A stretch of 64,000 nt of DNA from a virus (IMGVR_UViG_3300012979_000028:85985-149984); one strand, 5' to 3'; shown: positions 30,482-61,965, counted from the stretch's first letter. The notes: a model not told the origin generated them from the sequence alone. A program made the numbers and translations.

Positions 30482-33400
30482 TTACATATTTTTTCTTATT
30501 TTAAATTCTTTCTCTTTACCATCATTGAATTTAGTTTTTCCTTGAGCAGTCTTACTAAAACCTAGGTATCCGTTCCGAAATTTCTTTAAGTTCTAATTTT
30601 CTTAAAGACTAGACTATATCATTACCTATATTTCAAGGTAGCTCGCACTTCGAAAATTGGAATTTCACCAATAATCTACTCCCTATCAGGATAGTCGTTG
30701 CACTTTCTCTGTTTCCAGAGCTTAGCACAGGATTAGCATCTCAGCCTTCCCTGTTAGCCTTAAAGAGAATCCTTTAAGACACCCTAGATTTCTAGGTTCA
30801 CGAGCTTTTCACTTATAAATTTCTTTATAAGGGGACAAATTAGTTCATCCTTCTGATACCGATTGTGTTAGTAGAACCGCACTTAGGACAGGTATAATTC
30901 TCTTCGAAAGGTAATGAATCATCTCCTATCCAATGATTACCACATTCACGACATCTATTCTGAGCATGATTAATACTCTGATACATACCAAGGCTCATTG
31001 AATATCGAAGAAGACTTTTAATACCTTCATTCATTTCTGGAGCGATAGATGGAATTCTCACATGACAGATACAACCTCCAACTGATAATGGGAAAAATAC
31101 AGATTCTTTCTTTATCTTCTCTATTTGTATAATGTCATCTTCTACATTCATATGGAAAGAGTTAGTAAAGAATCCATTATTAGTTACTCCTTTAACCTTG
31201 CCATATTCTTTGATAAATTGTTCACACGCCAATGGCAGCCAACTTTCCCCGGGGGTACCATAGAGGGCCCATAATAATCCATCTTCTTTTTTATAGCGTG
31301 CGATATTTTCATTAATATGCTTCAAGGTTTCTACTGCAAAACTACTATCTTCAGACAATTTTTTACCTAGATGTAGTTTAGTTAGTTCATGTAATCCACC
31401 GTAACCAAAGCTAATTGTTGATTTCTTAAGTACAGGTTCAATACAGTCATCCGGACCAAGTGTACCTCCGTCAAATCCACCTTCCATAAATACTAGTGGA
31501 TCACACGAAGCCTTGAGTTTATAGAGATAATTAGCAGTTTTCTTACCAATATTTCTACCAATTGACATATAGTAATCAAGTACATCAAAGAATTGTTTAT
31601 TTTCTGTTTTTGCCTTCATATAGATCATAGGCAAGTTAAGTGAAACAACGCCGAGATTACAACGATAGATCTCAAATTCGTCATTTTCATTTTGCGGTAT
31701 ATAAGTTCCTGATCCTTTAAATTCAGGACCAAGGAATGCTCTACACTTTAACCTTCTAGAGGTTAACGGACTATCTCTTCAGAGGTGATTAGTCTCTGCT
31801 TCGCGCTTCGAAATAAGGAGTTTCACCCTAAATCTACTCTACTTGGTTATTCATAATATCACTTATCTAATAGTGCAATATTATTATCCGTTCGATAGTC
31901 TCTACACTTTATTGAATTAGTTCTAACTTATAATTATTAGTTTTATAAATTTTATTTAGTTTTAGCTGTTCTGTTATTTTATTTTTATTTTTCAAATTTT
32001 CATCTCTTATTAATTTAGATATGGACTCATATATTTTTGAAAAACCAGTATTAAGATCCGTGTACATTACTTGAATTCCTCGCTTAGGAGATTTTTTGAT
32101 ATTTTTCATTTTCTCCCTAAACTCAGGATCTCTCCACATCTCTTTTCGTTTCTCAATAATATTATCCCTATACTCCTTACTTTTCCACGCAGCTTTAACA
32201 CCTTTAGATACTTTATTTCTATATTTGTCTGATTTCCATAGATCCTTCATTTCTTTTGATCTCTTTTCCTTAAATTCCAAATTACTCCACTGTAATTTTG
32301 CAGCAGATGACATCTTTTCTAATGCATCACTATCGAACTCAGATTTATTAGATTTTCCACCAGGCTTAATATTATATCCATTACTAATTGAATTATACTT
32401 AGTTATATAATAAATTTCTAGTTCATCTAATTTTGTTTTTACTTCTGCTTTAGTTGGAAGATCTATCTCTTCTAATATACTAAACTCAAAAGCTTCGTAT
32501 CCGTATTTTTTAACTGCTTTATCGAAGTAAAAGTTTCCTCTTGCTTTCCTATGTTCATGCTGCCGTCTAACTAAATGAATAGTTTGACCAACATAATATT
32601 TTATCTCCGTTTCACTCTTTCTATGAGTATATAAATAAATATATCCTTTCATATTAGTAATTTAACGAAAGAACTAATTCAATCTTAGCACGGTATTATC
32701 TATCTGAGAATTAGAGCTTTCTCAGCAGCCTTCACCGTTAGCACTAATAGGTTAATCAATCCTATCAGAACACCCTAGTTTTCTAGGTTCACGAAGTTTT
32801 ACATGAGCTGTTTCTTAAATTCCCAGAATTCTCAGATTTCTTAGGGGTTTCTAAAGTTCTTAACTTAGATTCCTAGATTTCTTAGATTCTAGTGTTCTTA
32901 GATCCGACCCATGGGGCTCACGACTACTTTATATTTATGATATATCTCTCCGACATATCCAGCATCGAGTGATAAAAAGTCAGGATACATACAATTTTTT
33001 GCAGTTTCTACAGCTCGATCAAATAGGTCTTCCATTGGAGCTCCCTCGCCATGAAGTTCACTATCGTACAAAAATACAAGCTTAGGGAAAAGTACTGGCA
33101 CTTTAGCATTCTCTTTACCCTGGCCACCTCTACGTACATCAAGGAATACTTCACTTAGCATCTTAGACCAACGATCAGTACCATGACCGAATGTAAACGT
33201 TATGACAACTTGTCTTTAATTTTCATTAAAGGTTAGACTATATCATCTTCCATTAATCTGGAAGGATTGCACTTCGGAATAAGGAATTTCACCTTAAACC
33301 TACTCCCTCTCGGGATAGTCGTTACACTTTCTTACTTATCTAGTAAGCTTAGCACGGTATTACCAGCTACCCATTTCTGGGCCTTAGGCTTTCTTAGAGA

Positions 33401-39579: not shown

Positions 39580-41033
39580 GAAGCTTTCCAGACTAGTTCA
39601 AGATTTCTTTTCTGTAAGTCTGTTTTCATAAATCCTAACAAGTAATCATGATATTCTTTCTCCTGTGAATTCTTAACATAGCCGAGGAGAGTAAGTTTAT
39701 CAATCCCAGTAGTCTCCCATTTAAATCTATCTATGACTAAGAATTTATTAAGGTCAAGGTCTTCTGGTTTTGTGCAAGATCCCAGTACACCTCTCATTCT
39801 ATCCAATCTCTCAGAACATAATGGATTTCCACACTTCAGATTAGAACTATAAACATCAACCTCAGACATCTTATAACCACAGCTACACGTCGGCCACATA
39901 AAATTTCCGTTACCTTGAGAAAATACATCGCCTACCATTGGAATTGTTGAGTTAGCTAGGATTATACTTACCTCAGCCCCTGGAGTAATATTATTCTTAA
40001 CCATTTTACCAACCGAACCTGCACTAGGCTTTCTGATTGTAGTTCCTTTTATTACTACCGGATCAATCTCTACATTAGCTGACCAACTATCTTTTCCTTT
40101 AGGGTTTTGATTATTCCACTTTATTCCTCTTACTGTCGTTTTAATTACTGCATCCCCTACACCAGCCCCTGAATATTTAAGAGCTCCTTGACAAATACCG
40201 CAAGAATCATATAAAACCCAACCATCATTAAGGAAAGTACCAGTTGATGTTGAAGTTCTATCCAGTTCACAAAATCCAGGGAGTGCTTTTAATTCATCTA
40301 CAGTCCATACATCAGCGGGAGCAAAAAGCACATGACCATCAATAACAGACTTAACGGTTGGAAATGATCTAAGAACTTCTCTATAATCTGAATTTCTAAG
40401 TTTTAGTCCAAGAACTGTTTCATCTGTATAATATCTGTAGGCTCTGATTGTAAGTAGATTATTAACCTCATCATCACAATACTTCGAGTTTATCAGGCCG
40501 TTAGCTTTCTGTCTTGCTCTTTCAGGATCTCCATCATTAAACCTATCAATATCCACTAGAGCCTCTGCCTGAATAGCTACAATGCCTTTAGGAAATCGAG
40601 AGGGAAGAAATTTAATAAGCTTCCAAGTCTGATCTACACCAAAATCATCCAAGTTCAAGTTTCCAACAGTTACTACACGTCTTGGAATTCCTGTAAGTGG
40701 GTCAAGGTAGATAGCCAAAGAAGATCCATCATATTTAAGGTCACAGTATAATTTTTTGCCTAAGTTTGATTCCGCTGTAGAAATAGCCTCAAGCATAGTT
40801 TTATCAGTCACCTTTTCTTTTTTAATTCTTTCTATGTATGAGTTTTTTGTCTTAGTACCCATCAAAAAAGTCCTAAATACATAATCCCTGACATAGAATT
40901 TATCTTCCAACGCCGCTCTTTTCTCAAGTTCATCATACTCTGAATCTAACATACCTGTAGGAATTGAATCTACATAATAATTTTTACAAGCTATAATAAG
41001 CCTATCCCATTTGTTTAAAATTTCCTCTGTCAT
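39552..41033 (-). CDS. ligA: NAD-dependent DNA ligase (compact, divergent)
   Basis: Domain Ia YY...P...DSEYDEL, adenylation motif KYDG, EAL, DGWV, OB region and CSC...C..P.C zinc finger; no BRCT visible. Confidence 0.85.
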   Translation of the reverse strand: MTEEILNKWDRLIIACKNYYVDSIPTGMLDSEYDELEKRAALEDKFYVRDYVFRTFLMGTKTKNSYIERIKKEKVTDKTMLEAISTAESNLGKKLYCDLKYDGSSLAIYLDPLTGIPRRVVTVGNLNLDDFGVDQTWKLIKFLPSRFPKGIVAIQAEALVDIDRFNDGDPERARQKANGLINSKYCDDEVNNLLTIRAYRYYTDETVLGLKLRNSDYREVLRSFPTVKSVIDGHVLFAPADVWTVDELKALPGFCELDRTSTSTGTFLNDGWVLYDSCGICQGALKYSGAGVGDAVIKTTVRGIKWNNQNPKGKDSWSANVEIDPVVIKGTTIRKPSAGSVGKMVKNNITPGAEVSIILANSTIPMVGDVFSQGNGNFMWPTCSCGYKMSEVDVYSSNLKCGNPLCSERLDRMRGVLGSCTKPEDLDLNKFLVIDRFKWETTGIDKLTLLGYVKNSQEKEYHDYLLGFMKTDLQKRNLELVWKASWIVLKERL

Positions 41034-41124
41034 ATATGTTAATTTTCTGTTAGTATTTCATATATGAGAATAATAGACGATAATATATCCATTTTTGAAA
41101 AAAAAATAAGATGACTTCTTACTG

Positions 41125-41604
41125 TCATCCTATCACTGATTCTGAGTCGAAGATATAAATTGTCTCTACATCCCACGGGTTAAAGTCTAGGTAATCTTTT
41201 GGTGCGAAATGGTGAAACCTTATAACTCCTTTCTCAGTTAACCAGAATGCATCATATCCAAGCTCCCTTAGTTTATCCCAATCTACAACTTTCTTACCTA
41301 AGACTGAATTATATCTCATTGGAAGCTGAAATAAATCCTCCTCATTATTTAATATAAAAATCTTAGAACCTTTCTTTAATCTTAATTCCTGTACACTAGC
41401 CGGTTTATGTCCAATCTCTTCTTCTAAAAAATTTTTCCAACTTATTCTAGAGTTCTTGGGAGATGTCCAGAGTCCGTGTATAGGTTTATTCAAGAATTCA
41501 TTAAGCTCACTATGTATTCCTGTCTGATGTTTTTCTTTCTTATAGCCATCCTCAGAGCAAAATACAGTAACTATTTCCCAATCACTCCTCGTAACTAGTT
41601 TCAT
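41125..41604 (-). CDS. hypothetical protein
   Basis: ORF with GLWTSP, GYDA and WDVET motifs; function not assignable. Confidence 0.7.
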   Translation of the reverse strand: MKLVTRSDWEIVTVFCSEDGYKKEKHQTGIHSELNEFLNKPIHGLWTSPKNSRISWKNFLEEEIGHKPASVQELRLKKGSKIFILNNEEDLFQLPMRYNSVLGKKVVDWDKLRELGYDAFWLTEKGVIRFHHFAPKDYLDFNPWDVETIYIFDSESVIG

Positions 41605-42047: not shown

Positions 42048-42701
42048 TTATAGTAATGGTCCATTCGATAATAACTCATCATTACTAGCTTTCAGGTTCT
42101 CTAATCTAAAGTATCTATCTACGTTTTTAAATTGGGTTAGAAATTTTTGCTTCCAGACTTTATCACCATTATCTGAGGAGTAAATTAGGTCTTCAAAATC
42201 TACTCTACTGTCCTCTATAATATGATTCAGTTCAGGATTAGCTAAATATTTCTGAGCCTCTCCTTTTCGTAATTCAGCTAGTGTAATATGAGGTGTATAT
42301 TCAGCAAAACTTGATTCAACTCTATATTTTGTTCTAAGTCCTTTATTAATTAGATTCAGAATGCCATAGATCTCATTATTCTTCTTAAGTTTTAGGATAA
42401 CATAATCAGAGTCATTACTAAAGCTGGAAAGTTCGAATAGGTCTGAAACTTCTCTAAATCTTTCATTCTTACAATAACTAATAAACTCTTCGTATTTTTC
42501 ATCCCCCAGAATTAACTTAATGTCTTCGAGGATTGTATTTTTAGGAAGAATTTTATTAGAACTATAGAGCACTGTAATATGAGAATCTAGTTCAAGTCCT
42601 GTGTCATATAGATCATCTTCATTGAAAACACTACCTAGATCTACTGGAGTATATAAACCAATACCCCAGAGAAGGCAGCTATTGATATTATTTACTTCCA
42701 T
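42048..42701 (-). CDS. 2H phosphoesterase (T4 gp57B/Acb1-like)
   Basis: Two HxT motifs, SHITVLY and YTPHITLA. Confidence 0.8.
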   Translation of the reverse strand: MEVNNINSCLLWGIGLYTPVDLGSVFNEDDLYDTGLELDSHITVLYSSNKILPKNTILEDIKLILGDEKYEEFISYCKNERFREVSDLFELSSFSNDSDYVILKLKKNNEIYGILNLINKGLRTKYRVESSFAEYTPHITLAELRKGEAQKYLANPELNHIIEDSRVDFEDLIYSSDNGDKVWKQKFLTQFKNVDRYFRLENLKASNDELLSNGPLL

Positions 42702-45700
42702 TATTTCTTAGGTATTTTTAATCTAAATTTAGTTTTCATTCCTGCTAATTGAGATTTTAGATTAGAACCTCCTTGATTATAACCTTTATCATCCTTAACT
42801 GTTAATCCAAGTCCGAGAAGGTTATTTAGGAATTTCTGGTTATCTTCTTTAGCAGTTTCACCACGAGCAGATTGAATATAAGCTCTAGCATTTCTTGATA
42901 GTAAAGCCCATAACTCCATCTCTCCAATTTTCTGACCAGTTTCACGATAAAGTCCACGTCCTAGAATAGGTTGATCTTTTCTGAAATTAACACCACCGCG
43001 TCCAGGTCCATATAAGCTTGTAGTAACTTTATTAGAATAGCTAGGAATATGATATAGCTCCTCAAGAGTCATCCAACCGCACTGAAGAGGTTTATCAATT
43101 TTCTTAAACTTCCCTTTCATTCCATCTACTGCCTTCTTATAGTCTTCTGGATCTAGGTTTTCTTTCAATTCGTCCAAGTCAGTTATTTCAGTTTCAGGGA
43201 TTAAGATATCAGACTTAGAATCTACACCAAGCTCTTCCATCATTTTCTCAATCTTCTCACCAGTATAGTCAGAGTAACATCCAACACAGAAATGATAAGT
43301 CTCTTCGATAGGTTGAGTTTCGTGTAGGTGAATAAATTCTTCTACACTTAAGTCTGTATAACGTCCTGGATAATACTTTTCTATCAACGGCATTATTTTC
43401 TTCTGACCGGTTTTTGTTTTCTTATATTCATCCACTAGTCCATAAATTCGATGAGCAATATTACCCAAGTCTTGTTCCCATAGTACACCTGCAATCTTAC
43501 GGCTGATAGTAGAATAAGGGTTCATAATAGCTTCTACTCTATATTGCTTTCCTGAATTCTTGTCAACCATAATAGGCATAAGTTCATCTGGCTTTACGCA
43601 ACTTACTACACCTTTACCTCCATATCTGTTAGTAATCTTAGAACCAACCATAGCAATAGTCTTCTTTATAATACGAACTCTAACTGTATAAACAATCTTG
43701 AATTCCTTAGGGTTCATATTTACTGGTCTAAGTCTATCAGCAGCTACGTATTCTGGAAATTGATCATATATAATTTTTCTTTTCTTATCAAAGTCACTCA
43801 TATATTCATCAATGTCCTTCTTAGAGCTTAGGGCAAGTGTATAGTCAGGTTTCTTTTCTTTTGATGAGATTTGTGGGTCTGCGTTATATTGAATCATTAC
43901 ATCAGATACATAACCTTCATCAATATTATTACTAACCAATAGATCTTCAACGGTAAATGCTGTACTCATATCAGACTCTCCATAGACACCTCCCAGTTTA
44001 TCAGCTAATGCTTTTATTGCACTATCCATTCTGATGGCTCTATATAATGAAACTATAGGGTCACCAGATTTTACTTTAGTTCCAATAGGTGCAATCCATT
44101 TTAAACATTTCTGATCGGTAATATTAATAGAGAAGTCAATGATACTGTAAGATGTTAGTCGATTAGCAAAAGACTCAGAAACAACCAAGGCATCCTCATT
44201 AACTAGTCCGAAATAAGCATGGAATAGAACGAGAGCATTAACACCAGATTTATAAGAGTCCATTGTATTACCGATTTCACCTGTTATAATGTCACCTTTC
44301 TTTACTTTCTGACCTACTTTTACTTTAGGCTCTGTAAATACGGCAACATCATTCTGAGACTTAATAGCTGCTTTTCTAAGTATCTCTGTTATTTTTCCAG
44401 ATTTACCTTTAATTATAACTTTGTCTTCAGTAATTTCAGTAACAACGCCATCTTCATCCTCCTTATACTCCTCGTTCAGTGAGTTATTTCTTAATTCTTC
44501 ACCACGTCCTGTATCTACCAGTGGTCTCTGTGCATTAACTAGTGGAATACTTTGTTTTAACATTGAAGTACCCATTGAAATACGAACAGAGTCTGTAGAA
44601 TTAACGAAAGGAAGACGTCTAGTAACAGAAGATAATCGATAGTCTGGGTGAAGATCAATCAAGTCAACTTCTCCTACACTGACCATTTTTCTTTTCATTC
44701 TATACTTAACTTCTACCTCACCGTTTGGATCTGGTTTTAGAGTTTTATGTTCATAGTCTACATACTCACTAGAACAAACCTTTAAGTTAAGATAATCTAG
44801 GTATTTTATAGTTATCTTATTAAAGTTCTTATCAAATACGTCAAACAAAACACCTTCATCAGTAATATGAGTAGAGACGGTTAGTGAGTTTTGTTTATTT
44901 GTATTCTGATTAATTGGTGTATCAGCTAGGTCTATAATATCAGCAAACGTCGGATTATAAGCTACTGTATCCGGAATTGAAACTTTATCACTAAGAGATC
45001 CAAGATTTATAGCATTAATACCAGGAGGGACTTGTAGATTAGAATCATCTCCCTGACCTTGACCCTTCTTTTTACTATCCGCAGTACCTTTAAAGAATCT
45101 GATTGCTAAGTTTGTGATAACAGTAAGTGGATCAGGAAGCTTACCATACTTAATCATGTTACCTGAAATATTTCTCTTAGCTCTGATGAATTTAATAGGA
45201 CCTCCAGCACCACCTCTAATCATATGCTTCATAAAACTAGTAGAAACAGTATCAATAGTTTTATCAATAATCAGGTCCTTCATACGGTCATCTCCAAAGG
45301 CTATACATTGATCTATAAGTTCCTTTGTAATATACTCAGGTCTATAATCTAGGTCTAGTTTAATCTGGAGTTTACGTATTTGATCTTCAGTTAGTCTTAG
45401 TAATTCCTTCTTATCACCAGTCACCGAGTCAATATTATCATACTTAATCTCAACTCTCTGTTCAACTAGTGATAGATCAGTTTCACCACGTCTTTCAATT
45501 CTTAATATTTTCTTTGCGATATTATACCTACGATTGTAATCAAATATAATTAGGTGATCACCAGTTCCTACAGTTCTAAAACGAATATCAAAGTCTGAGT
45601 TTAGTGTATTAGTTGGAATTCTATATTTTCCCTCAATTATAAATACATCATTAATTTCTCTAGGGACTTCGAATGCTGTAGTTAGCTCCTCACCATCATC

Positions 45701-45901
45701 ATCTAGAATATACTTAATGTTTACTCTGAATGAAGCTGTTAACCCATTTTCAGTAAAGTAAGAAGCTGGATAGTCATCACTAGAGATATCGAATGTATAA
45801 GAAGTAATTTTTCTACTACTATACATGTCGACATTCTTTAGATATCTATCAACTAATGTTTTAGCACCCCTCGACTTGAAAAATTCATTAAAATCACTCA
45901 T
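42701..45901 (-). CDS. rpoB: phage multisubunit RNA polymerase beta-like subunit (1066 aa)
   Basis: RISMGTSMLKQ, GVNALV...NEDALVVS, GSKITNRYGGKGVV, MNPYS, GQKIGEMELWAL. Confidence 0.93.
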   Translation of the reverse strand: MSDFNEFFKSRGAKTLVDRYLKNVDMYSSRKITSYTFDISSDDYPASYFTENGLTASFRVNIKYILDDDGEELTTAFEVPREINDVFIIEGKYRIPTNTLNSDFDIRFRTVGTGDHLIIFDYNRRYNIAKKILRIERRGETDLSLVEQRVEIKYDNIDSVTGDKKELLRLTEDQIRKLQIKLDLDYRPEYITKELIDQCIAFGDDRMKDLIIDKTIDTVSTSFMKHMIRGGAGGPIKFIRAKRNISGNMIKYGKLPDPLTVITNLAIRFFKGTADSKKKGQGQGDDSNLQVPPGINAINLGSLSDKVSIPDTVAYNPTFADIIDLADTPINQNTNKQNSLTVSTHITDEGVLFDVFDKNFNKITIKYLDYLNLKVCSSEYVDYEHKTLKPDPNGEVEVKYRMKRKMVSVGEVDLIDLHPDYRLSSVTRRLPFVNSTDSVRISMGTSMLKQSIPLVNAQRPLVDTGRGEELRNNSLNEEYKEDEDGVVTEITEDKVIIKGKSGKITEILRKAAIKSQNDVAVFTEPKVKVGQKVKKGDIITGEIGNTMDSYKSGVNALVLFHAYFGLVNEDALVVSESFANRLTSYSIIDFSINITDQKCLKWIAPIGTKVKSGDPIVSLYRAIRMDSAIKALADKLGGVYGESDMSTAFTVEDLLVSNNIDEGYVSDVMIQYNADPQISSKEKKPDYTLALSSKKDIDEYMSDFDKKRKIIYDQFPEYVAADRLRPVNMNPKEFKIVYTVRVRIIKKTIAMVGSKITNRYGGKGVVSCVKPDELMPIMVDKNSGKQYRVEAIMNPYSTISRKIAGVLWEQDLGNIAHRIYGLVDEYKKTKTGQKKIMPLIEKYYPGRYTDLSVEEFIHLHETQPIEETYHFCVGCYSDYTGEKIEKMMEELGVDSKSDILIPETEITDLDELKENLDPEDYKKAVDGMKGKFKKIDKPLQCGWMTLEELYHIPSYSNKVTTSLYGPGRGGVNFRKDQPILGRGLYRETGQKIGEMELWALLSRNARAYIQSARGETAKEDNQKFLNNLLGLGLTVKDDKGYNQGGSNLKSQLAGMKTKFRLKIPKK

Positions 45902-46268: not shown

Positions 46269-46607
46269 TTAAAATTCTACGTTCATCATATTCCCACTCT
46301 TTCTTTTCTTCTGAGTTGTTGTAGTTGTAGTAGTACTCTCCCCTTGACTATTACCATTATTATCCGTACAACAAGTTACAGGTAATGGATTTATCTCTGG
46401 TTTAGTATTATATCTTACAATCTCAGGATCATAAGGAATGTCATTAGTAGGGGTAGAGGTATAATAGTTTCCCGTTACTCCTCTACCATCCTTAACTAAT
46501 TCAATATTTATACCTAATGTATTCTTAAAATCAGGTATATCAAGCTCAATTTTAATAGTTCCTGCCATGTTTGTTAATTGTTTAGTTATTAAATTATTTA
46601 TCATCAA
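46269..46607 (-). CDS. hypothetical protein in the RNAP operon
   Basis: ORF between beta' and beta; Thr-rich tail. Confidence 0.65.
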   Translation of the reverse strand: MMINNLITKQLTNMAGTIKIELDIPDFKNTLGINIELVKDGRGVTGNYYTSTPTNDIPYDPEIVRYNTKPEINPLPVTCCTDNNGNSQGESTTTTTTTQKKRKSGNMMNVEF

Positions 46608-49600
46608 GTTTATTATTCAAGAGCAATCCAAGAATAGTTTCAGCCATAACGTCACCAGTAAGTTCAATATTGCCTTTAATAGCTTTACCTACTACCTGAC
46701 CACCATAACCGTAAGAAAGAACCGTGAAGAATGAATTTTTATTAGTAATACTCTTCTGTGATCCTCTATACTCAACTCCATCTATTTCTAGACTCTTTGG
46801 ATCATAATCAATCATAGTAATACCTCTGAAAAGTAATTCTACAAGCTCCTCCTGTGTACCAGATAGTGAACTTATTCCTGTTTTAGCAAAATCTTTATCG
46901 GAAATTGTTAAGAACTGTTTTCGGAAGATTAGATAAATATCTGATAGGTTCTTCTCTCCTACTCCTGAAATCACGTGAGCCATATTGACCACTCCAGAAC
47001 AGAATTTATCAAACTTCTTTACTTGTGCACCCTCTGGGAAGTAATACATACACTTAGGATTATACTGATATGTCTTTGATCCTATCTTTACTTCCACAAT
47101 AGAGCCACCTTCTTCTACATAATTGATAACCCCATCTTCATATGCATAACAGTCTGAGATTATTACGGTATCTTTCTCATAATAACGTTTTCCTGCAGAT
47201 CTTCTTGCTCCAATAAAGTCAATCAATGTATTTACCTGACTAATAGGGGATACGGTCTGATAAGCTACTCCGATACTTTCTCCCTTATCAAATTCAGTTT
47301 TACCTACATTGACAAAGTTAGTAGGTCTTGGATATTTAAATTCCTCTTTCTTAGTCTTAACATATATCCAAGCTCCCTCTTCTCTGATTGTACACTTATC
47401 TGGGGCTTTAAAATAGAAACTTTGATCTAGTACTCGTTCATGACCTCCGTGTTTCAATCCTAGAGCCGCCTGTGTAGAACCTTCCGTAAGAGATGTAGCA
47501 AATGAAAGTCCGATTGCTGTTCCATCTGTTAGATCTTTGAATTTATTTTTTCCAAGTAGGTCTGGAGTAACTGTACTAAGATCTCCGGCATTCTTAGAAA
47601 CAATAGATTTAACTGGAACTAGGTCTCTTTCACTTTCAGGAGTTGCCTTTATCAATTTATCTGGATATACTTCACCATTAGGGGCTGTTCTTCCTCCTGC
47701 TTTATATCTAGGTATTAGGATCCCCGGATTCTTATCATCTACACCCTCATGATAGATAAAGTTATTCATGATAAAAGTGATCTGACGTGTTAACCATCCA
47801 GAAGTAGGAGTACCTGATTGCTTGATAGACTGCAAACTACGGTTCTCTACAGAATGGTAAATCATATCCTTCTCACTATAACCTTGAAGTAGTGATCCTC
47901 TTGTAATAACTGGAATCTCATCAACACCCGAAATAATCAACTGAGGCATATTAAGAGCTGAGATAGAAGACAACTTAATCTTTCCAGCACGATCTAGTTC
48001 ATTTTTTAGATCAGCCGAGAATTTACCTTCAATCTCCTTCTCATAAGCTGCATATTTCTCTGTAAGGATTGCAATTTTCTGTTGATCTGTAAGCTCCTTT
48101 GAATCAGCTATCTTACAAATCTCCTTATAAAGATCAGTATTAGTATCAACAAACAAGGTCTTATAATCAAATGTTACTACACCTGCTATTGTTACTGCTC
48201 GGAGTGCAAATTTCTGAAGAGCCTGACGTTTCTCAACTCCCTTAGGATCTCCATTCATCCATTCACTAAGACGACCTGCCTCTTTAGCCTTTATTGAACT
48301 AGTTGGACTATCTACAATCTTAGTTTTATCCAAGTCTGTTTCAAGTATCTTACTAATTCTAAGTCTTCCGTAAGTTGTCTTCTTAGCTTTGTAATCAACT
48401 CCACCTAGCTTACCTGTGAAAACTATTGGAGTGCCTATTTTAATTTTCTTGTCAACCTCTACGTCTTTAAGAAGTTTTGTATAATCATCATAAAAGTATC
48501 TAGGCTCTTCAATATCTTTAGGATCCTCTGGCGTAACCTCTGTAGCTACATTAAGTCCATTCAATACCTCAAGATTAAAAGGATAGATTGCTTTATTATT
48601 CTTCTTATAGACATTAACGAAACGCGGACTCATCTTTTCGTAAGTATCCTGAGCTGCCTCCTCTGGAACTAACTGTAGAGCCGCTGTATCCAATTTTGTT
48701 ATCTGTAAGGCTTTTTATCCCTACATTCTAATAATTCTTGTTCTTATTAGTTCAGCATATATTTTCATCCTACTACATTTTATAGGATGGTGGACACTCT
48801 TGGAGAGATTATTATATTCTTCACTCTCTATGCGTTACACTTCTAAGAGACCCCTTACATTCCCTTAGTTAGCTCGGTATTAGCATCACAGCTTTCACCG
48901 AATTTGCCCACTGATAATCTGAAACATTACTGCATCAGACGGCAATATTGTTTACCATCAAAATCCAATTTCTTCTATATAGGTCGTTACTCTATATACG
49001 TTCTCTTATGAACTGCTATTGCATTCCTGCAAAGTTGAGACTATATCTTCAAGAATTATATTCTTGCTTCACATTTCGAATCACTTGATTCTACTCTACT
49101 CGCTTCTTCAGAATTTCTTCCTATGCTTTCGATAGTCGTTGGGGTTATTAATTAAATCTGCTAGTCAGGTAATAATTACTAATAACCTGCTGATTGACTC
49201 TATCTTATGAATTTTTAGGGTAGGGTGACTAATTCCTACGTTAACCTCCTATCATAAGCTTAACGAGTGTTCCCAGCATTTAGTGAAGTTTTAAAACACC
49301 AATTTTTGTTTAGCGTTTAGTGGTTGACAAACCGCTATTGGAAATTGGATCGAATATTCGTCACACAATCTCATCTTCATAGCGAAAATACCATACTCAT
49401 GTAGAGTTGGCTGACGATTTACTCTGTTTTTCTAGGTGTTTCCATCTAGCATAGACTATATCTTCTCTTTTCTCCTAGAGTTTCGTACATAGTCGTTGAA
49501 CTAAGAATCTAGAGTGAATTTTCGACTTCTATTTTTAGGTTTGGATTTTCTTGTAACTTCTCTTGTAAGAAATTATATACTCTCCTCTTTTCACTTTTGT

Positions 49601-51415
49601 CTAAGAATTCAGTATATCTAGTTTTTGTAGGATCTAGTTGAGTATGTTTTTGAAACTTTATCATAGTATCAAATTCTAGATCTGCCAAATCTGTTGTTGG
49701 ACCTGAGATAATCATAATAACTCTTCCTCCTAAATAAGTATGGAATAGTTCTCGATTAGTTCTTCTCTCCCAATCTTTAGAAAAACCTACTTTAATACTT
49801 CCAGGAAATTCTAGGAAATACATAAATCCTTGATCTCCTTGAAATTTATTATGTAGGAGGGTTTTGTTTGCAAGTCTCATATGGTACTCGCTTCCGTATC
49901 CGTGAGAAGATTTATCTAGAAGATTTCTTTCACGTATTTGTTTCATTCTATCTCTCTTTTCTTGAGACTGATTCCATATTCCAATCTTCGAAGTTCCAGC
50001 ATAACGACCGGATGCATGAAGTTGTCTCATATGTTCAGCCCTATTGAAAGTAGAACCTGTACCACTAGAAACTTGACTATTGATGTATTGGTTACTTAAT
50101 ATCATGTTTTCTGTGGTTTAATTAATATATTCACCCTTTTTAGATTCTCAGCTGCTGATTAGGTGTATTAGACCCTTCCCAGCAATTCTCGAAATTCAAT
50201 TAACCGGTCTCTTCTTTACCAGTTACCGTAGGATTTTCACCTAACGTACCATGAAGCTTAGGCTCGTCTTTATCTAAGCTCTAGCACGATTTGTTTTTCT
50301 GCGTACTCTTTAAATAATTTCTGTAGCTCTTCGTTTGAACTCTCTTTCTTTGTAGATTCTATTGCTTGTGCTGGAGTAAAGTTAAGTTCATCTACTAAGT
50401 ACTTAATAAACCCTTCTCTACACATCTCATAAGCAATATGTCTAGGAACTCCAAGCTCATCTATCGGCAGTGTTGTAGATGGGACTATCGGACATCTAGC
50501 GGAATTCTTTGTACGAACAGCATAAATCTCTCGAGCGAAATTGTCTTTAGAAGAGTTCAATAAGTTCGTAGCTACCTTCTTTCCTGAATTAATAAAGGCT
50601 TTAAGAATTGCTACATACTTTGCTTTTCCCCCCGGAGTTTTTATATTCTCCATTACGCTCGTATAATTATTACTACCACTCTTACTCTCAACACAACAGA
50701 ATCTAATAATCATACTGTATAGCTGAGATAATTTGTGTACATTCATTTTTGCTTCACCACCAGGACGAGAAATACGGAAAGGTCTCATCATAGCTGGTAA
50801 AACTAAGTAGTATTTATTGATAAGTGATCTAAATTCTGTAGCTCTTTCTGGAAAATGCTCATTAATAATCTTAAGCAATCCATCATATGAACACTTATCA
50901 AAGTCATCTACAAACTCAGTGATCGTTAATGTATTTTTCTTCTTATCATAATTAAACTGACAAGAATCGAATACCTTTATACCGAGTTTTCTTCCTGCCT
51001 TATCACTAGAATATCCACCAGCTTTCAAATTACCTGTAAACTGTAGGTCTATTGTAGTATCTTTAAAAATATCATCAAATAAGTCTTTAAAGATATCAAA
51101 CCTAAGCTCATTCAAGTAGTAGAAAGGTAACTCAATTCTTGCAAATCTCCTTAATCCTTCCTCTGCTGAAAATACTCTAGTTCCACAATTAGGGCATGGG
51201 AATGATGTAGGTCTTTTAATTCTTCCACAGACACATTCATTAGCTATCGGAGAACCAAAAATAAGCGGATCATATACACCTCCGATAAAACACTGAACTC
51301 CTGTGATTTTCATTAAGTTTACATCATGCCAATCATAAACAACGTGATCCTCTCCATCTGCTCTCGTATAGTCAAGTATCGCGTCATCTGTTAACAATTC
51401 TAGTGAAACTGCCAT
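46594..51415 (-). CDS. rpoC: phage RNA polymerase beta'-like subunit, 4 exons (51415-50283, 49423-49312, 48965-48954, 48690-46594; 1117 aa)
   Basis: N-terminal zinc finger CVCG...CPNC, RFARIELP, NSARCPI; spliced VL|VNRQPTLH...CQPLNA|DFDG|DTA; SGWLTRQ; exons sum to 3354 nt, in frame. Confidence 0.92.
48691..48953 (-). mobile_element. group I intron 3 of beta' (263 nt, no ORF)
   Basis: GGT|AAACAA...AATTG|GAT junction; core AAATTCGGTGAAAGC, ATACCGAGCTAAC, TAACGCATAG, AATATATGCTG. Confidence 0.85.
48966..49311 (-). mobile_element. group I intron 2 of beta' (346 nt, no ORF)
   Basis: GCT|AAACAA...AATTG|GAT junction; P/Q/R/S-like AAATGCTGGGAA, AATCAGCAGG, CAACGACTATC, GAAGATATAGTCT. Confidence 0.88.
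49424..50282 (-). mobile_element. group I intron 1 of beta' (859 nt) with ORF
   Basis: CT|AGAG...ACAG|A junction; AATTGCTGGGAA, AATCAGCAGC, CAACGACTATG, GAAGATATAGTCT; the ORF lies between Q and R. Confidence 0.88.
49509..50105 (-). CDS. intron-encoded putative homing endonuclease (GIY-YIG variant)
   Basis: C-terminal GFMYFLEF...IKVGFSKDWERR...LE; located inside the intron. Confidence 0.7.
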   Translation of the reverse strand: MILSNQYINSQVSSGTGSTFNRAEHMRQLHASGRYAGTSKIGIWNQSQEKRDRMKQIRERNLLDKSSHGYGSEYHMRLANKTLLHNKFQGDQGFMYFLEFPGSIKVGFSKDWERRTNRELFHTYLGGRVIMIISGPTTDLADLEFDTMIKFQKHTQLDPTKTRYTEFLDKSEKRRVYNFLQEKLQENPNLKIEVENSL

Positions 51416-54866: not shown

Positions 54867-55262
54867 TCAGCTCTTAATTTCTCTGACTAGTAGGTGTTTA
54901 TTCCTGGCTAATCTTACTAACATGCTAATCCCCTTATTTTCTTCTTCAGATTCTAAGGAAAAGACTATACATGCATTTCCGAGTTCAGCCATCTTGTTAT
55001 TTCTTAGGTACCCAGCTCTTTTTCCATACTTATTCCAATCGGCAGTTATTATTCTAAGTTGGTAATTATTCTCCTTAGCATAATCTTCACCTAACTTATC
55101 GGCACCTTCACTTCCTCCTCCAGAGATTATAGTAATTTTCTCTCCCCTTTTTATTCGTTCGGACAGATAATAATTACACTTCTCTTTCAGTAAATTATAA
55201 TCTGAGAAATTTTTACTACCACAGATTATAACATTGAATTCCTTCTCTTTTTCTTTTTTCAT
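54867..55262 (-). CDS. SLOG/YspA-like (DUF2493) protein
   Basis: VIICGSK.F.DY, IISGG..GADKLG..YA, ADWNKYGKRAGYLRN..M. Confidence 0.8.
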   Translation of the reverse strand: MKKEKEKEFNVIICGSKNFSDYNLLKEKCNYYLSERIKRGEKITIISGGGSEGADKLGEDYAKENNYQLRIITADWNKYGKRAGYLRNNKMAELGNACIVFSLESEEENKGISMLVRLARNKHLLVREIKS

Positions 55263-57268
55263 TATTTTATCCAGTTTTTAACATCTTCTATCTTCTCTAG
55301 TTTTTTATAGTATGTTTTATTTTTTCCTGAATTTTCTATCAACTTTCTCAGTATCTCTATTCTGTCTATCTCTTCCGGACTATATTCTAAGAGATCACCA
55401 GTAACTCCAACATATAGAAATTTATCTGAGGTCTTGAATGTAACCTCTTCTAGGATTCTTTGAGATAGTTTTTCTGATAGATCCCCTGGAGTAATTAAGT
55501 AAAGCGTAGAATCACATAAAACATCCTTCTCACTTTTTCTTGTTTCAACATCATAGAGTTCAAGTTCTGGATTAAATACTTCCACTACATCCTTCAAACA
55601 ATCAGTTACAGTATCTCTCCATGGATTAGCTGGTGTAATAGGTCCGTCCAGATATAATCGTGTTGGCTTCTCTATTACATCAATTCTCTCTTCCATAAAT
55701 GATTCTCTAAGTATAAAACAGATCATTTCTTTTTTAGCTCCCGGACATATAGACTTAGTAAATGAACAATGAAATATCTCAGAGTCATCAAAGTGGTCTA
55801 CTCCTAAGTCGTTTTTAATGAAGGAAGTAATATAATCAATGACATCTTTATCTAGGTTGGAAACATCTCTTCTATAAACTCCTGTCTTGAGAATAAAATT
55901 AATTAAGATCTCATACTTCTTCGTTTTACGAAGCCATGGAATATAACCTTTTAAATCTAAGGCCCTCAGTTGGTCCATTATTACGTTTCCATTTTGTACA
56001 GACTTAGGATTTTTATAGAGCACTGGATAAGGTCTCCCTGCTTTATATGCTATCTTTGCTTTATAGAGATCATTTACGGATACTAGTTTTTCAGGAATAG
56101 TTAAGAGAATTTTCATTTCTGTAGTAGAGTCACTCCTCCCACTATCATCATCTTCTTTAGCATACAACTTATCCTTTAACTCTTTCTTTCGGTCTGGGTA
56201 AAGTTCTAGAAATTCTTTAACAGTTATCCAATAGTGATCGTTAAGTAATCTATCTTCCTTATCCTTCTTCTCAAAAATCCTCAAAAAAGAAGTGTAACTC
56301 TTGCCGCTCTTAGTATACTTATAGGCTTCCTCTTTAGATTTATGAATTTTAACAATATTATTACTACTATCTAGTTGAACAACATTTCTATAACTAAATA
56401 CTAAACCTGCATCTTCTCTAAGTTCAGGGTTGCTATAATATTCATCAAGTTTATCTTTCCTATCCCAATTTCCTAGTCTACACCAAAATACGCCCATGTA
56501 AGGATTAGAATTTTTAGAACTTGAATGGCGCATAACTCTACCTAGATAAAGTCCATCTTTAATAATCTCTTCACTATTTTTATAGATCTTAATTATATTA
56601 TACTCACTATCATAACAGAGAACTTCAGATCTATTATAGGTAGTTGAATTAAAATTACAAACAGGCAACTCTTCTTCACTTAGAGAATTATACAGAACAA
56701 CAGCCTCTGGGTAATTTGATTCTAGGTTACTAAGTTTATCCCAATAATATCCAAGAGACTTATGATTATTGCGAATAGCTTCTTTAATGGCTGTTCTATT
56801 ACATTCGAGTTCTTTAGCCGCTTTTGATGTACTGCTAAATATTCTATAAATTTCTATCTCTTTTCCGTCCTCATCCTTTTTTAAATAACATGCTATAGCT
56901 ATTTCCTTTGCCTTATTTGCCTTTTCACGAAGTTCTGCTAAAATCTCTAGAGGAATTTGAGAATAACAAGAATTTCTCTCCATAGTATATGTATAATTAA
57001 GCTTTAGCATACACTCCGCTGCCATAGCTAATTTAAGATTGTCGGGGTACATCCTATAGAGCAGTATGTGAGCTACAATATGTTCTAGTGCAGTAAAAGT
57101 CACTAAGTTATCATCACCATCCGTTCCTCCCATGCACCTAGGAAGAATATGGTGTCTCTCTGAATACTCTGTCTTTCCCAATTTTCTAGTTTTCCCGAGT
57201 TCGACTAGTTCTTCATAGAGTTGTTTCTGGTCTGCATCTTTGTTTAAATATTTTTCTAAGTCTAACAT
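55262..57268 (-). CDS. HNH endonuclease fused to RusA-like resolvase and nucleoside 2-deoxyribosyltransferase-like domains
   Basis: ERHHILPRCMGG...NLV...EHIVAH (HNH) with NUMOD1-like repeats; SVNDLY...RRDVSNLDK..ID...DDSEI (RusA-like); LYLDGP...WR...VFNP (NDT-like). Confidence 0.7.
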   Translation of the reverse strand: MLDLEKYLNKDADQKQLYEELVELGKTRKLGKTEYSERHHILPRCMGGTDGDDNLVTFTALEHIVAHILLYRMYPDNLKLAMAAECMLKLNYTYTMERNSCYSQIPLEILAELREKANKAKEIAIACYLKKDEDGKEIEIYRIFSSTSKAAKELECNRTAIKEAIRNNHKSLGYYWDKLSNLESNYPEAVVLYNSLSEEELPVCNFNSTTYNRSEVLCYDSEYNIIKIYKNSEEIIKDGLYLGRVMRHSSSKNSNPYMGVFWCRLGNWDRKDKLDEYYSNPELREDAGLVFSYRNVVQLDSSNNIVKIHKSKEEAYKYTKSGKSYTSFLRIFEKKDKEDRLLNDHYWITVKEFLELYPDRKKELKDKLYAKEDDDSGRSDSTTEMKILLTIPEKLVSVNDLYKAKIAYKAGRPYPVLYKNPKSVQNGNVIMDQLRALDLKGYIPWLRKTKKYEILINFILKTGVYRRDVSNLDKDVIDYITSFIKNDLGVDHFDDSEIFHCSFTKSICPGAKKEMICFILRESFMEERIDVIEKPTRLYLDGPITPANPWRDTVTDCLKDVVEVFNPELELYDVETRKSEKDVLCDSTLYLITPGDLSEKLSQRILEEVTFKTSDKFLYVGVTGDLLEYSPEEIDRIEILRKLIENSGKNKTYYKKLEKIEDVKNWIK

Positions 57269-57274
57269 ATATTA

Positions 57275-60103: not shown

Positions 60104-61965
60104 CTATAGTTGTTCTTCATAGATTACACTATCAACTATATCACAATACTTATAATATTCATGAATCATCTCATCTCTTCCTTCAGCTCCTTTAGAAAAT
60201 ATTGGAATTCTTTTCTTAGACTTGCTTCCTAGTGTTATAATGTTCATATGATTACCTCTAGCCACTCTACCTACCGATTGAAGAACTACACCTGCCACTT
60301 TACCTTGAATTAGTAGTATATTTTCAAGATTAGGAAAGTCTAGTGCACGATAACCTGAGGAAGTAGATGGAATTATATCAACCTCATTATTTCTTATCTT
60401 ATCACAGCTTTCTTGTAGAGTTAGTTTGCTTTTATTTCCTTGTAGATCATAATAAACATAACCCTCTCCGCAAACAAGAAGAACTCTAAATTTTCCTAAG
60501 AAGTATTTATCTATCCACTCATTCAGAATAGAGTTTAGGTTGTTTATAGGAATGAATAGTTTTGGAAATCTTTTAGCTATCTTGACTACTAGGTTACATA
60601 CTTCAGGGTTAGTCCAGATTCTATTCATTACATTCATATAAACATTACTATCCTCGCTAAAATCACTCTGTTCAAATTTAATAAGATCAAGGCAAGATGT
60701 TTGTATTTCGATGGCGTCAATTTTTATAGTTAGCGGCATTCTATAAACAAGACTAGGACCAAACCATTTAATCAAGTCTTTATTATTGCAAACTACATCA
60801 GATAAACCATTAACAAAGGAAATCATCTCACCTCCAGTTTTATCAGCAGTACCAGAGAAAGCATAAAATCTAGAAGCCCCTCTTAAAGTTGAAAATAAAT
60901 ACTCGCCCCCTGGATTTATAGTATACTCAACTTCATCAACCAGAACAACATCATAAGTACTCATTAATGTTTCAAAGCCTGATCGTTTATTAATATCTTT
61001 CACATCAGATCTATTCATTATTCCGGTAGTTATTATTCCATCTATACCTATCGAATTTTTATGACCAGGAGGAAGTACATCTAGGCTATATAATGATTTA
61101 ACTCTCTTTACTAATTCATCCATTGCTTTTTTCCCTGGAGCTACTAATAATACTTTTTTCCCAATTGAATGAAGATAATTTGCTAATACTGCTATGGATT
61201 GTGTCTTCAGTTTTGTTATCCTAAAGGCTTTTTATCCCTTAGTTCTAGTAATTCTTTTTTTTTATTCTTACTAGCTCGGCGTACATTTTCATCCTGCGAT
61301 TTAATTGGATGTTGGATACTCTTGGGAGGATTATATTTATTCACCTCCTACGCTCTACACTACTATAAAACCTTTCGCAATTTTCATAGTTAGCACGGTA
61401 TTAGCATCTCAGCTTTCACCGTTTTTACCCAATTATCATTTATGTATTTCTACATAAAGCGGCAAATTTTTTAAATTTTCTAATGGTAGATTTTTCAATG
61501 ATTGTTGATTTATTTTTCATAATGTATATATTAATTTTTACCGTAAGACGTATATACATTAAGCAAACCTATCCTATATTTGAGAATGTGTAAGATATCT
61601 TCATTTTGATAATCTCTAAGTTCTGGGAATGGAATATTTCTTGGAGCATCAGGAGAATATATAGCATCTGCAAGAAGGTTATTATAATCATCAGAAGAAA
61701 TGTAAGGGCTCAGAACATTAATTAAGTATCCTGCCCAACCTAATCCAATCAAGTAAGTTACAATTCCTCCTTTAGTAAACTTCTTATCATAGATCTTTAT
61801 ATTTGTTGTTACAGTTCCCCAAGACTTTTTCCAAGGTATGAACTTATTTTCTTTTTTTGTAACTTCGAAGAAATATTTTATAGATAAATCATCAGTTACT
61901 ACAACAATTTTATTAATAGTTTTATCAACGCTAATTTGTAACATAGAATAAAATTTATTTATCAT
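60104..61965 (-). CDS. SF2 (UvsW/XPB-like) DNA helicase, 2 exons (61965-61540, 61207-60104; 509 aa)
   Basis: Q motif LRDYQ, Walker A YTSYG|KT restored by splicing, LVDEVE, FSGT, ALDFP, QSVGRVAR; exons sum to 1530 nt. Confidence 0.88.
61208..61539 (-). mobile_element. group I intron in the helicase Walker A motif (332 nt)
   Basis: GGT|AAAA...CTG|AAG junction; core very similar to beta' intron 3. Confidence 0.85.

Follow-up and report, generated by a model that had tools for sequence, protein, structure and literature searches.

In the viral DNA analysed here, a stretch of 64,000 nucleotides (nt) referred to below as the window (IMGVR_UViG_3300012979_000028:85985-149984), the gene for the beta' subunit of a multisubunit RNA polymerase (RNAP) carries three introns of group I, and two of these lie only 12 bases apart within the sequence that encodes the catalytic motif NADFDGD. 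The micro-exon between them encodes D-F-D-G, and by its sequence it supplies two of the three catalytic aspartates of the enzyme. On the comparisons described below, this arrangement is probably the result of two unrelated mobile introns having settled in the same motif, where they would splice independently and in either order, the DFDG exon being a by-product.

Reconstruction of the beta' gene

Joining the four exons by their coordinates on the minus strand (Table 1) yields a 3354-nt frame with one stop, which encodes a beta' protein of 1117 amino acids (aa) in which NADFDGD occupies residues 414-420. A preliminary description of this DNA had assembled the motif from three exons, the 12-nt one among them, and every coordinate proved exact, with the frame kept; its rule that each junction follows the pattern U|...G also holds, since U is the last nucleotide of each 5' exon and G the last nucleotide of each intron at all three junction pairs. 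The junctions are fixed independently by relatives in which NADFDGD is contiguous (e.g. L018, L016, L019 and L025), and we infer from the sequence that splicing restores the motif. The full polymerase motif occurs in no reading frame of the window or of the 184-kb genome record (approximately 49% complete), in agreement with the earlier claim that no open reading frame (ORF) contains it. Among 20,000 versions of the 621-nt gap produced by dinucleotide shuffling, 3 contained a 12-mer that encodes DFDG, is preceded by G and ends in T.

The product is identified as a multisubunit RNAP beta' subunit by its match to PF00623, by a DPBB region that carries NADFDGD, and by the beta gene (PF00562) that adjoins it downstream; the intronless homologue in L018 can be aligned to bacterial beta' through the motif (E 4e-16). 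Exon 1 is 59-76% identical to its counterparts in 69 relatives, exon 4 is 89% identical to that of L096 over the part searched, and the beta' protein is 61-64% identical to those of loci resembling the Jug phages, outside whose clade it is placed. A tblastn search of exon 4 against cultured phages gave no match, and a promoter scan stayed at chance level.

Table 1. Coordinates of the beta' gene, its introns and associated features in the window
Feature	Position	Strand	Description
beta' exon 1	50283..51415	(-)	residues 1-378, Zn-finger region up to ...EKQIVL
group I intron 1	49424..50282	(-)	859 nt, phase 2; guide 50250-50245; P/Q 50187 + 50160; R/S 49499 + 49464
intron-1 ORF	49509..50105	(-)	198 aa, candidate T5orf172/MUG113-type (GIY-YIG superfamily) homing endonuclease
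beta' exon 2	49312..49423	(-)	112 nt, VNRQPTLH...CQPLNA; PF00623 E 3e-7
group I intron 2, A|D site	48966..49311	(-)	346 nt, ORF-less, IA-like with P7.1/P7.2
intron 2 elements	P10 strand 49306-49301; P1 guide 49300-49294; R 49141; S 49049	(-)	
micro-exon (exon 3)	48954..48965	(-)	12 nt, D-F-D-G
group I intron 3, G|D site	48691..48953	(-)	263 nt, ORF-less, core type differs from intron 2
intron 3 elements	P1 guide 48943-48938; P3 48911/48790; P7 48835/48754	(-)	
beta' exon 4	46594..48690	(-)	first residue is the third catalytic Asp
partner beta subunit gene	42701..45901	(-)	1066 aa, uninterrupted; PF00562 E 2e-17

Evidence for the group I introns

Intron 1 contains P, Q, R and S elements, a P1 and a terminal G, with its ORF inserted between the Q and R elements. 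In introns 2 and 3 the U at the 5' splice site is paired with a guide G in P1, the last nucleotide is G, and the alignments to the Rfam family RF00028 contain the P3-P7 pseudoknot and a P4-P6 core with the G-binding G-C pair. Group I identity, which the preliminary description had put forward as a point to be checked, is upheld by compensatory pairs in the two families that flank the micro-exon and by matches to RF00028 for all three introns (56.7 bits, E 3e-13, for intron 2; 43.5 bits, E 3e-9, for intron 3, which is under the 50-bit cut-off; 23.4 bits for the 3' half of intron 1). A scan of the whole window against Rfam at the gathering threshold returned no matches, which is attributed to a filter effect. 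The fold of intron 3 has a z of -4.6. Introns 2 and 3 have stops in all three sense frames, and reading the minus strand confirms the earlier observation that both are ORF-less, start with AAACAA and finish with AAATTG. The introns are predicted to be self-splicing.

Covariation was counted in the families of introns 2 and 3. Among the 11 introns of the G|D family, 93% of the cells are paired (35-42% in slid controls) and 50 of 72 pairs have changed on both sides; in the 3' half of the 9 introns of the A|D family, whose P3/P4 were left out, 97% are paired and 23 of 37 pairs are compensatory. These figures somewhat favour the structures to which they refer, because each family structure was drawn from one member. 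P7 is 100% paired in both families and P3 is 87% paired in the G|D family, while P9.0 is paired in 9 of 9 introns of the A|D family, where both strands have changed, and fully paired in 7 of 9 G|D introns. As judged from their sequences, introns 2 and 3 belong to two unrelated families: the local alignment score between them is 29, and the mean for shuffled sequences is 28.

Occupancy of the insertion sites in related loci

The preliminary description had suggested a survey of intron occupancy in related phages, and this was carried out by splice-aligning 69 IMG/VR loci and the window over 94 codons, six of the loci (L021, L028, L029, L033, L048 and L053) being set by hand. The 70 loci contain 14 insertion sites within the 94 codons, and 39 of the 70 are split inside NADFDGD. 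The site of intron 1 is occupied in 68 loci and empty in L018 and L021. Both sites that bound the micro-exon are patchily occupied: the A|D site in 18 of the 70 loci (in 16 of them alone) and the G|D site in 6 (in 4 alone), with both occupied in the window and L020 and neither in 48. At least five state changes are required for each site on a 26-tip tree, and the closest relative, L064 (90% aa identity), is without intron 3. The loci L024-L069 appear to be Jug phages, as judged from the RpoC fragment in table ST4 of PMC12880540.

Exons of 40 nt or less are of 14 types, with lengths of 10-30 nt among them, and the numbers that would preserve the frame (5) or shift it (9) if skipped are as expected by chance. 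In the Jug-like locus L068:8826-11224, five introns, compact ribozymes of 160-190 nt, lie within 63 coding bases and are separated by exons of 12, 17, 11 and 23 nt, and in L021:7241-9829 a group I intron is followed by a 24-nt exon that holds the whole motif and then by a group II intron. In 10 of 11 double loci the resemblance between the upstream and the downstream intron does not exceed that of shuffles. A rule that neighbouring introns must be dissimilar was considered but does not hold generally, because in Jug loci compact introns that resemble each other are separated by 11-23 nt. Near beta' residues 712-714 (window position ~47800), most relatives carry an insertion, and the window and L064 carry none.

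Recurrence of the DFDG exon in other polymerases

The P1 hairpin of the G|D intron was used as a search pattern, which found 26, 109 and 66 loci in three collections. Of these 201 loci, 76 were kept and 125, having neither a match to an intron profile nor polymerase-like upstream text, were dropped as chance; in the genome collection, 1 of 66 pattern matches looked genuine. The 76 loci, 10 of which were kept for their upstream text alone and some of which also served to train the intron profiles, fall into 32 clusters: the 12-nt DFDG exon is present in 10 and a 15-nt ADFDG exon in 2, and the other 20 are contiguous upstream.

The DFDG exon is found in Jug-related beta' subunits, in beta' subunits of the phiKZ type (L073, L077 and L166), and in a YonO-like single-subunit polymerase of the SPbeta type (L084), in which the two intron types are swapped. 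Rfam independently backs the introns that flank the exon in L020, L073, L075/L084 and L087, and in L077 it backs the upstream intron; L184 and L128 were placed by likeness only, and the upstream intron of L131/L166, which has no profile match, was assigned from its ends and motifs. A separate contig, L191, has the same junctions as the window and may come from the same phage.

The search also found, in L100 and L153 (match 1801-1826), a bacterial-type rpoC right after the end of rpoB, with an intron of the intron-3 family at DFDG|D; this DNA may be bacterial, organellar or from a phage. In a further eight loci (L086, L104, L106, L107, L130, L146, L163 and L233) the text resembles RPB1 of eukaryotes or giant viruses and an apparent group I intron is present at the G|D site; L130 and L163 have no intron-profile match.

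Intron ORFs and the proposed origin of the arrangement

The ORF in intron 1 is a lead for an endonuclease of the T5orf172 type: it scores 0.91 to a T5orf172 cluster in the ESM Atlas, with 156 shared features, and it matches the endonuclease family phrog_681 (E 0.002). It has 284 homologues, and 2 of 25 homologues match T5orf172 weakly; a profile search of the PDB gave no match. ORFs of the HNH/NUMOD or GIY-YIG kind are present in intron 2's homologues at the A|D site, and one of these ORFs (L064:8233-9116, GIY-YIG) is split into two overlapping frames. None of the 11 G|D introns in the alignment has an ORF.

The arrangement probably arose as follows. In the conserved codons of the motif, which cannot drift, every Asp codon is preceded by a U, and for this reason they would be durable targets for homing, from which an intron could be lost only by an exact event. 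Intron 2 lacks, and has probably lost in this phage, the endonuclease that its homologues carry, and the ORF-less intron 3 would probably, though on weak support, spread by co-conversion with the endonuclease of a neighbouring intron. The numbers of lineages with both sites occupied, the G|D site alone, the A|D site alone and neither are 6, 1, 3 and 8 (Fisher p 0.05), so that in this biased sample the A|D intron is present in 6 of 7 lineages with the G|D intron versus 3 of 11 without it, as hitchhiking would lead one to expect. There are precedents for hitchhiking in T4 mobE/nrdB (PMC2790892) and for homing in trans (PMC2790892, PMC5871332), and the targeting of active sites is itself the textbook explanation (PMC12908238, PMC3984707, PMC11620839).

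The order of splicing

The preliminary description had proposed that two ribozymes must share the 12 nt of the micro-exon and that splicing is for this reason obligatorily ordered, and neither proposal is supported. In the predicted pairings, intron 2 forms 7 base pairs (bp) with exon 2 in P1 and 6 bp with nucleotides 1-6 of the micro-exon in P10, and intron 3 forms 6 bp with nucleotides 7-12 in P1 and 4 bp with exon 4 in P10. Since the two halves abut without overlapping and no guide requires a ligated junction, the sequence does not imply an order; neither intron needs the product of the other, and each is found alone in relatives, an identical 6-bp P10 being present in L064, which is without intron 3. 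The sum of P10 and P1 is at most 12 in the 10 other loci checked, for which the automatic finder gave weak or doubtful assignments in L073, L077, L128 and L166, and the 3' ends of L073 and L084 are provisional.

It is nevertheless conceivable, if rather unlikely, that an order without any regulatory role is imposed sterically, the two ribozymes being unable to dock together on adjacent 6-bp helices, in which case one of them would wait, probably intron 3 before its first step or intron 2 before its second. In favour of such an order, the two predicted helices abut exactly in the window, and the 10-11-nt exons of Jug phages also accommodate P10 and P1 within the exon (5+5 of 11). However, P10 is short or undetected (0-4 bp) in several double loci, disruption of P10 in a model intron only lowered splicing (PMC10136302), and by the established mechanism both pairings are transient (PMC3984707).

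Exon skipping

An exact skip of the micro-exon would be in frame and would remove two of the three catalytic aspartates. An RNAP that loses its catalytic aspartates loses its activity, and the earlier statement that skipping would give an in-frame, dead subunit is accordingly sound. The further suggestion that splicing could gate phage transcription is disfavoured, because the introns are unrelated, cross pairing in P1 is limited to 1 bp in both directions, the matching intron ends are peculiar to this genome, and 9 of the 14 short-exon types in relatives would shift the frame on skipping. Once intron 3 has been removed, the skip junction is preceded by U instead of G, which leaves the stepwise routes without a usable splice site; the direct route would require intron 2 to reach the terminal G of intron 3. 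Work on a model system traced skipping to chimeric cores or to splice sites that are compatible across introns, and differences in these elements suppressed it (PMC10136302). Tandems of the Twort type are characterized by similar cores or cross-compatible splice elements; in the window, compatibility is limited to P9.0 and 3 bp of P10, and the dissimilar cores and guides would keep skipping rare.

Regulated skipping, which would gate phage transcription through the dead beta' subunit, is on this evidence very unlikely. It draws on the in-frame skip, on P9.0 ends that are interchangeable here, on the reality of skipping in Twort, Coxiella and SIOphi (PMC10136302, PMC11878797), and on the recurrence of the exon in several lineages, but P9.0 is interchangeable in 1 of 6 double loci related to Jug, none of the 9 other double loci for which both ends are available has identical end hexamers, the pair is missing from most relatives, and the neighbouring micro-exons of 10, 11, 17 and 23 nt shift the frame. 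We infer that an Asp codon at the head of each downstream exon accounts for part of the shared AAACAA start. An extended version, in which the DFDG exon is a convergent checkpoint where dissimilar ribozymes tile 12 bases and act in turn, an occasional skip producing a dead but assembling beta' that throttles transcription, is similarly improbable. A decaying gene or an assembly artefact, which would be compatible with splicing known from sequence alone and with a half-complete record in which another polymerase gene is possible, can be dismissed almost entirely in view of the open 1117-aa frame, the intact P7, P3 and P9.0, the compensatory changes across both families, and the same junctions in L191 and in contigs of run X2 that extend over both introns (either of which could share the source of the window).

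Several points weigh against independent splicing of two mobile introns with the exon as a by-product. In the window the two helices tile the micro-exon with zero spare bases, which makes a steric order possible; P9.0 is AA/UU in both introns and a 3-bp cross P10 can form, which would allow some direct skipping; and no RNA read was found across any junction in the material searched (one RNA run, X1, in which 10% of the sequence words were present and which does not cover the region or yield a contig across the introns). In the co-occurrence test, loci chosen for their G|D intron were pooled with unselected ones, and the lineages are not independent; the site states are more clustered on the tree than in shuffles, so that shared ancestry explains part of the co-occurrence.

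Relation to known systems

Jug (jumbo gut) phages, which are defined by TerL/MCP/genome clustering in four groups (360-402 kb), have genomes with approximately 18 group I introns each, and RNA reads back 37 of 76 introns (PMC12880540). They are related to the present phage, their annotated RpoC piece (382 aa) being homologous to exon 1, but the introns here are longer, and in the accessible text of that paper neither exons nor introns of RNAP genes nor the catalytic motif come up. The tandems of Twort orf142, Coxiella 23S and SIOphi share with the window a short exon between group I introns and have documented skipping (PMC10136302, PMC11878797). Their exons, however, measure 23 and 34 nt, the two Twort introns closely resemble each other while those in the window are unrelated and have different guides, and the exon in the window carries catalytic residues.

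In the Bodo saltans virus, polr2a and polr2b have several group I introns, splicing of which was confirmed by reverse-transcription PCR and the ORF-less ones of which were proposed to home in trans; this is a eukaryotic giant virus with near-identical offspring introns, and the accessible text gives no exon sizes (PMC5871332). Introns that bear endonucleases are found at conserved aspartates of phage RNAP genes in PhiPA3 gp210 (PMC11620839) and in the RNAP of AR9/PBS1 (PMC12350094), but these are single or far apart and lie in other subunits or at other sites, and no micro-exon is described in the parts of the papers that were accessible.

In the beta'-type gene of Escherichia phage Goslar (NC_048170), two group I-type introns likewise interrupt NADFDGD on either side of a micro-exon, with an HNH gene in the upstream intron. 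The Goslar exon differs in being predicted at 13 nt and at other sites (168214-168202), and RefSeq marks one intron and leaves the exons unjoined. Mitochondrial introns, the splicing of which is usually assisted by proteins, provide a further comparison. Mini-exons of less than ~4 codons between group I/II introns are regular in fungal mitochondria, but these are organellar and not in an RNAP active site (PMC10352661). A literature search that covered few subscription papers found no published description of the DFDG micro-exon. Precedents for the skipping of exons, for viral RNAP genes rich in introns and for mini-exons are already in print.

Neighbouring genes and other introns

The gene context (neighbours encode a ligase, a DnaB-like helicase, NrdD and an SbcC-like protein) and the class of the record indicate that the source is a large bacteriophage, taken here to be a jumbo phage of the gut type. 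A group I intron that has no ORF and belongs to the intron-3 family lies in a helicase gene (window 61208-61433, minus strand), and two more group I cores (30595-30836 and 33214-33343, minus strand) lie near the anaerobic ribonucleotide reductase region. A 669-aa ORF at 55262-57271 (minus strand), in which an HNH-like N-terminus and a NUMOD1 repeat are fused to a resolvase-like C-terminal part, is possibly an in-frame mobile element. Outside the window, a gene resembling a family A DNA polymerase (G000:C1:36800-43200) contains many group I introns, among them two neighbouring, closely similar ones (C1:41301-41616 and 40892-41163, approximate) with the same P1 guide and exon ending, which would be far more prone to skipping than the pair in the window.

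Significance

The micro-exon offers a natural test of ribozyme proximity, since the Twort (23 nt) and engineered (24 nt) exons are approximately twice as long and any error in splicing falls on the active site. Genes of this kind, which here include the 39 of 70 loci split within the motif, are dropped by surveys that look for the motif in one long ORF, such as that of mReC phages, in which the motif had to lie within an ORF of at least 800 aa (PMC7481178). The cultured phage Goslar, which grows on laboratory E. coli, makes the order of splicing and the extent of skipping measurable. Finally, the exon recurs in three distant lineages of viral polymerase, which identifies NADFDGD as a landing zone that mobile introns use in all of them.

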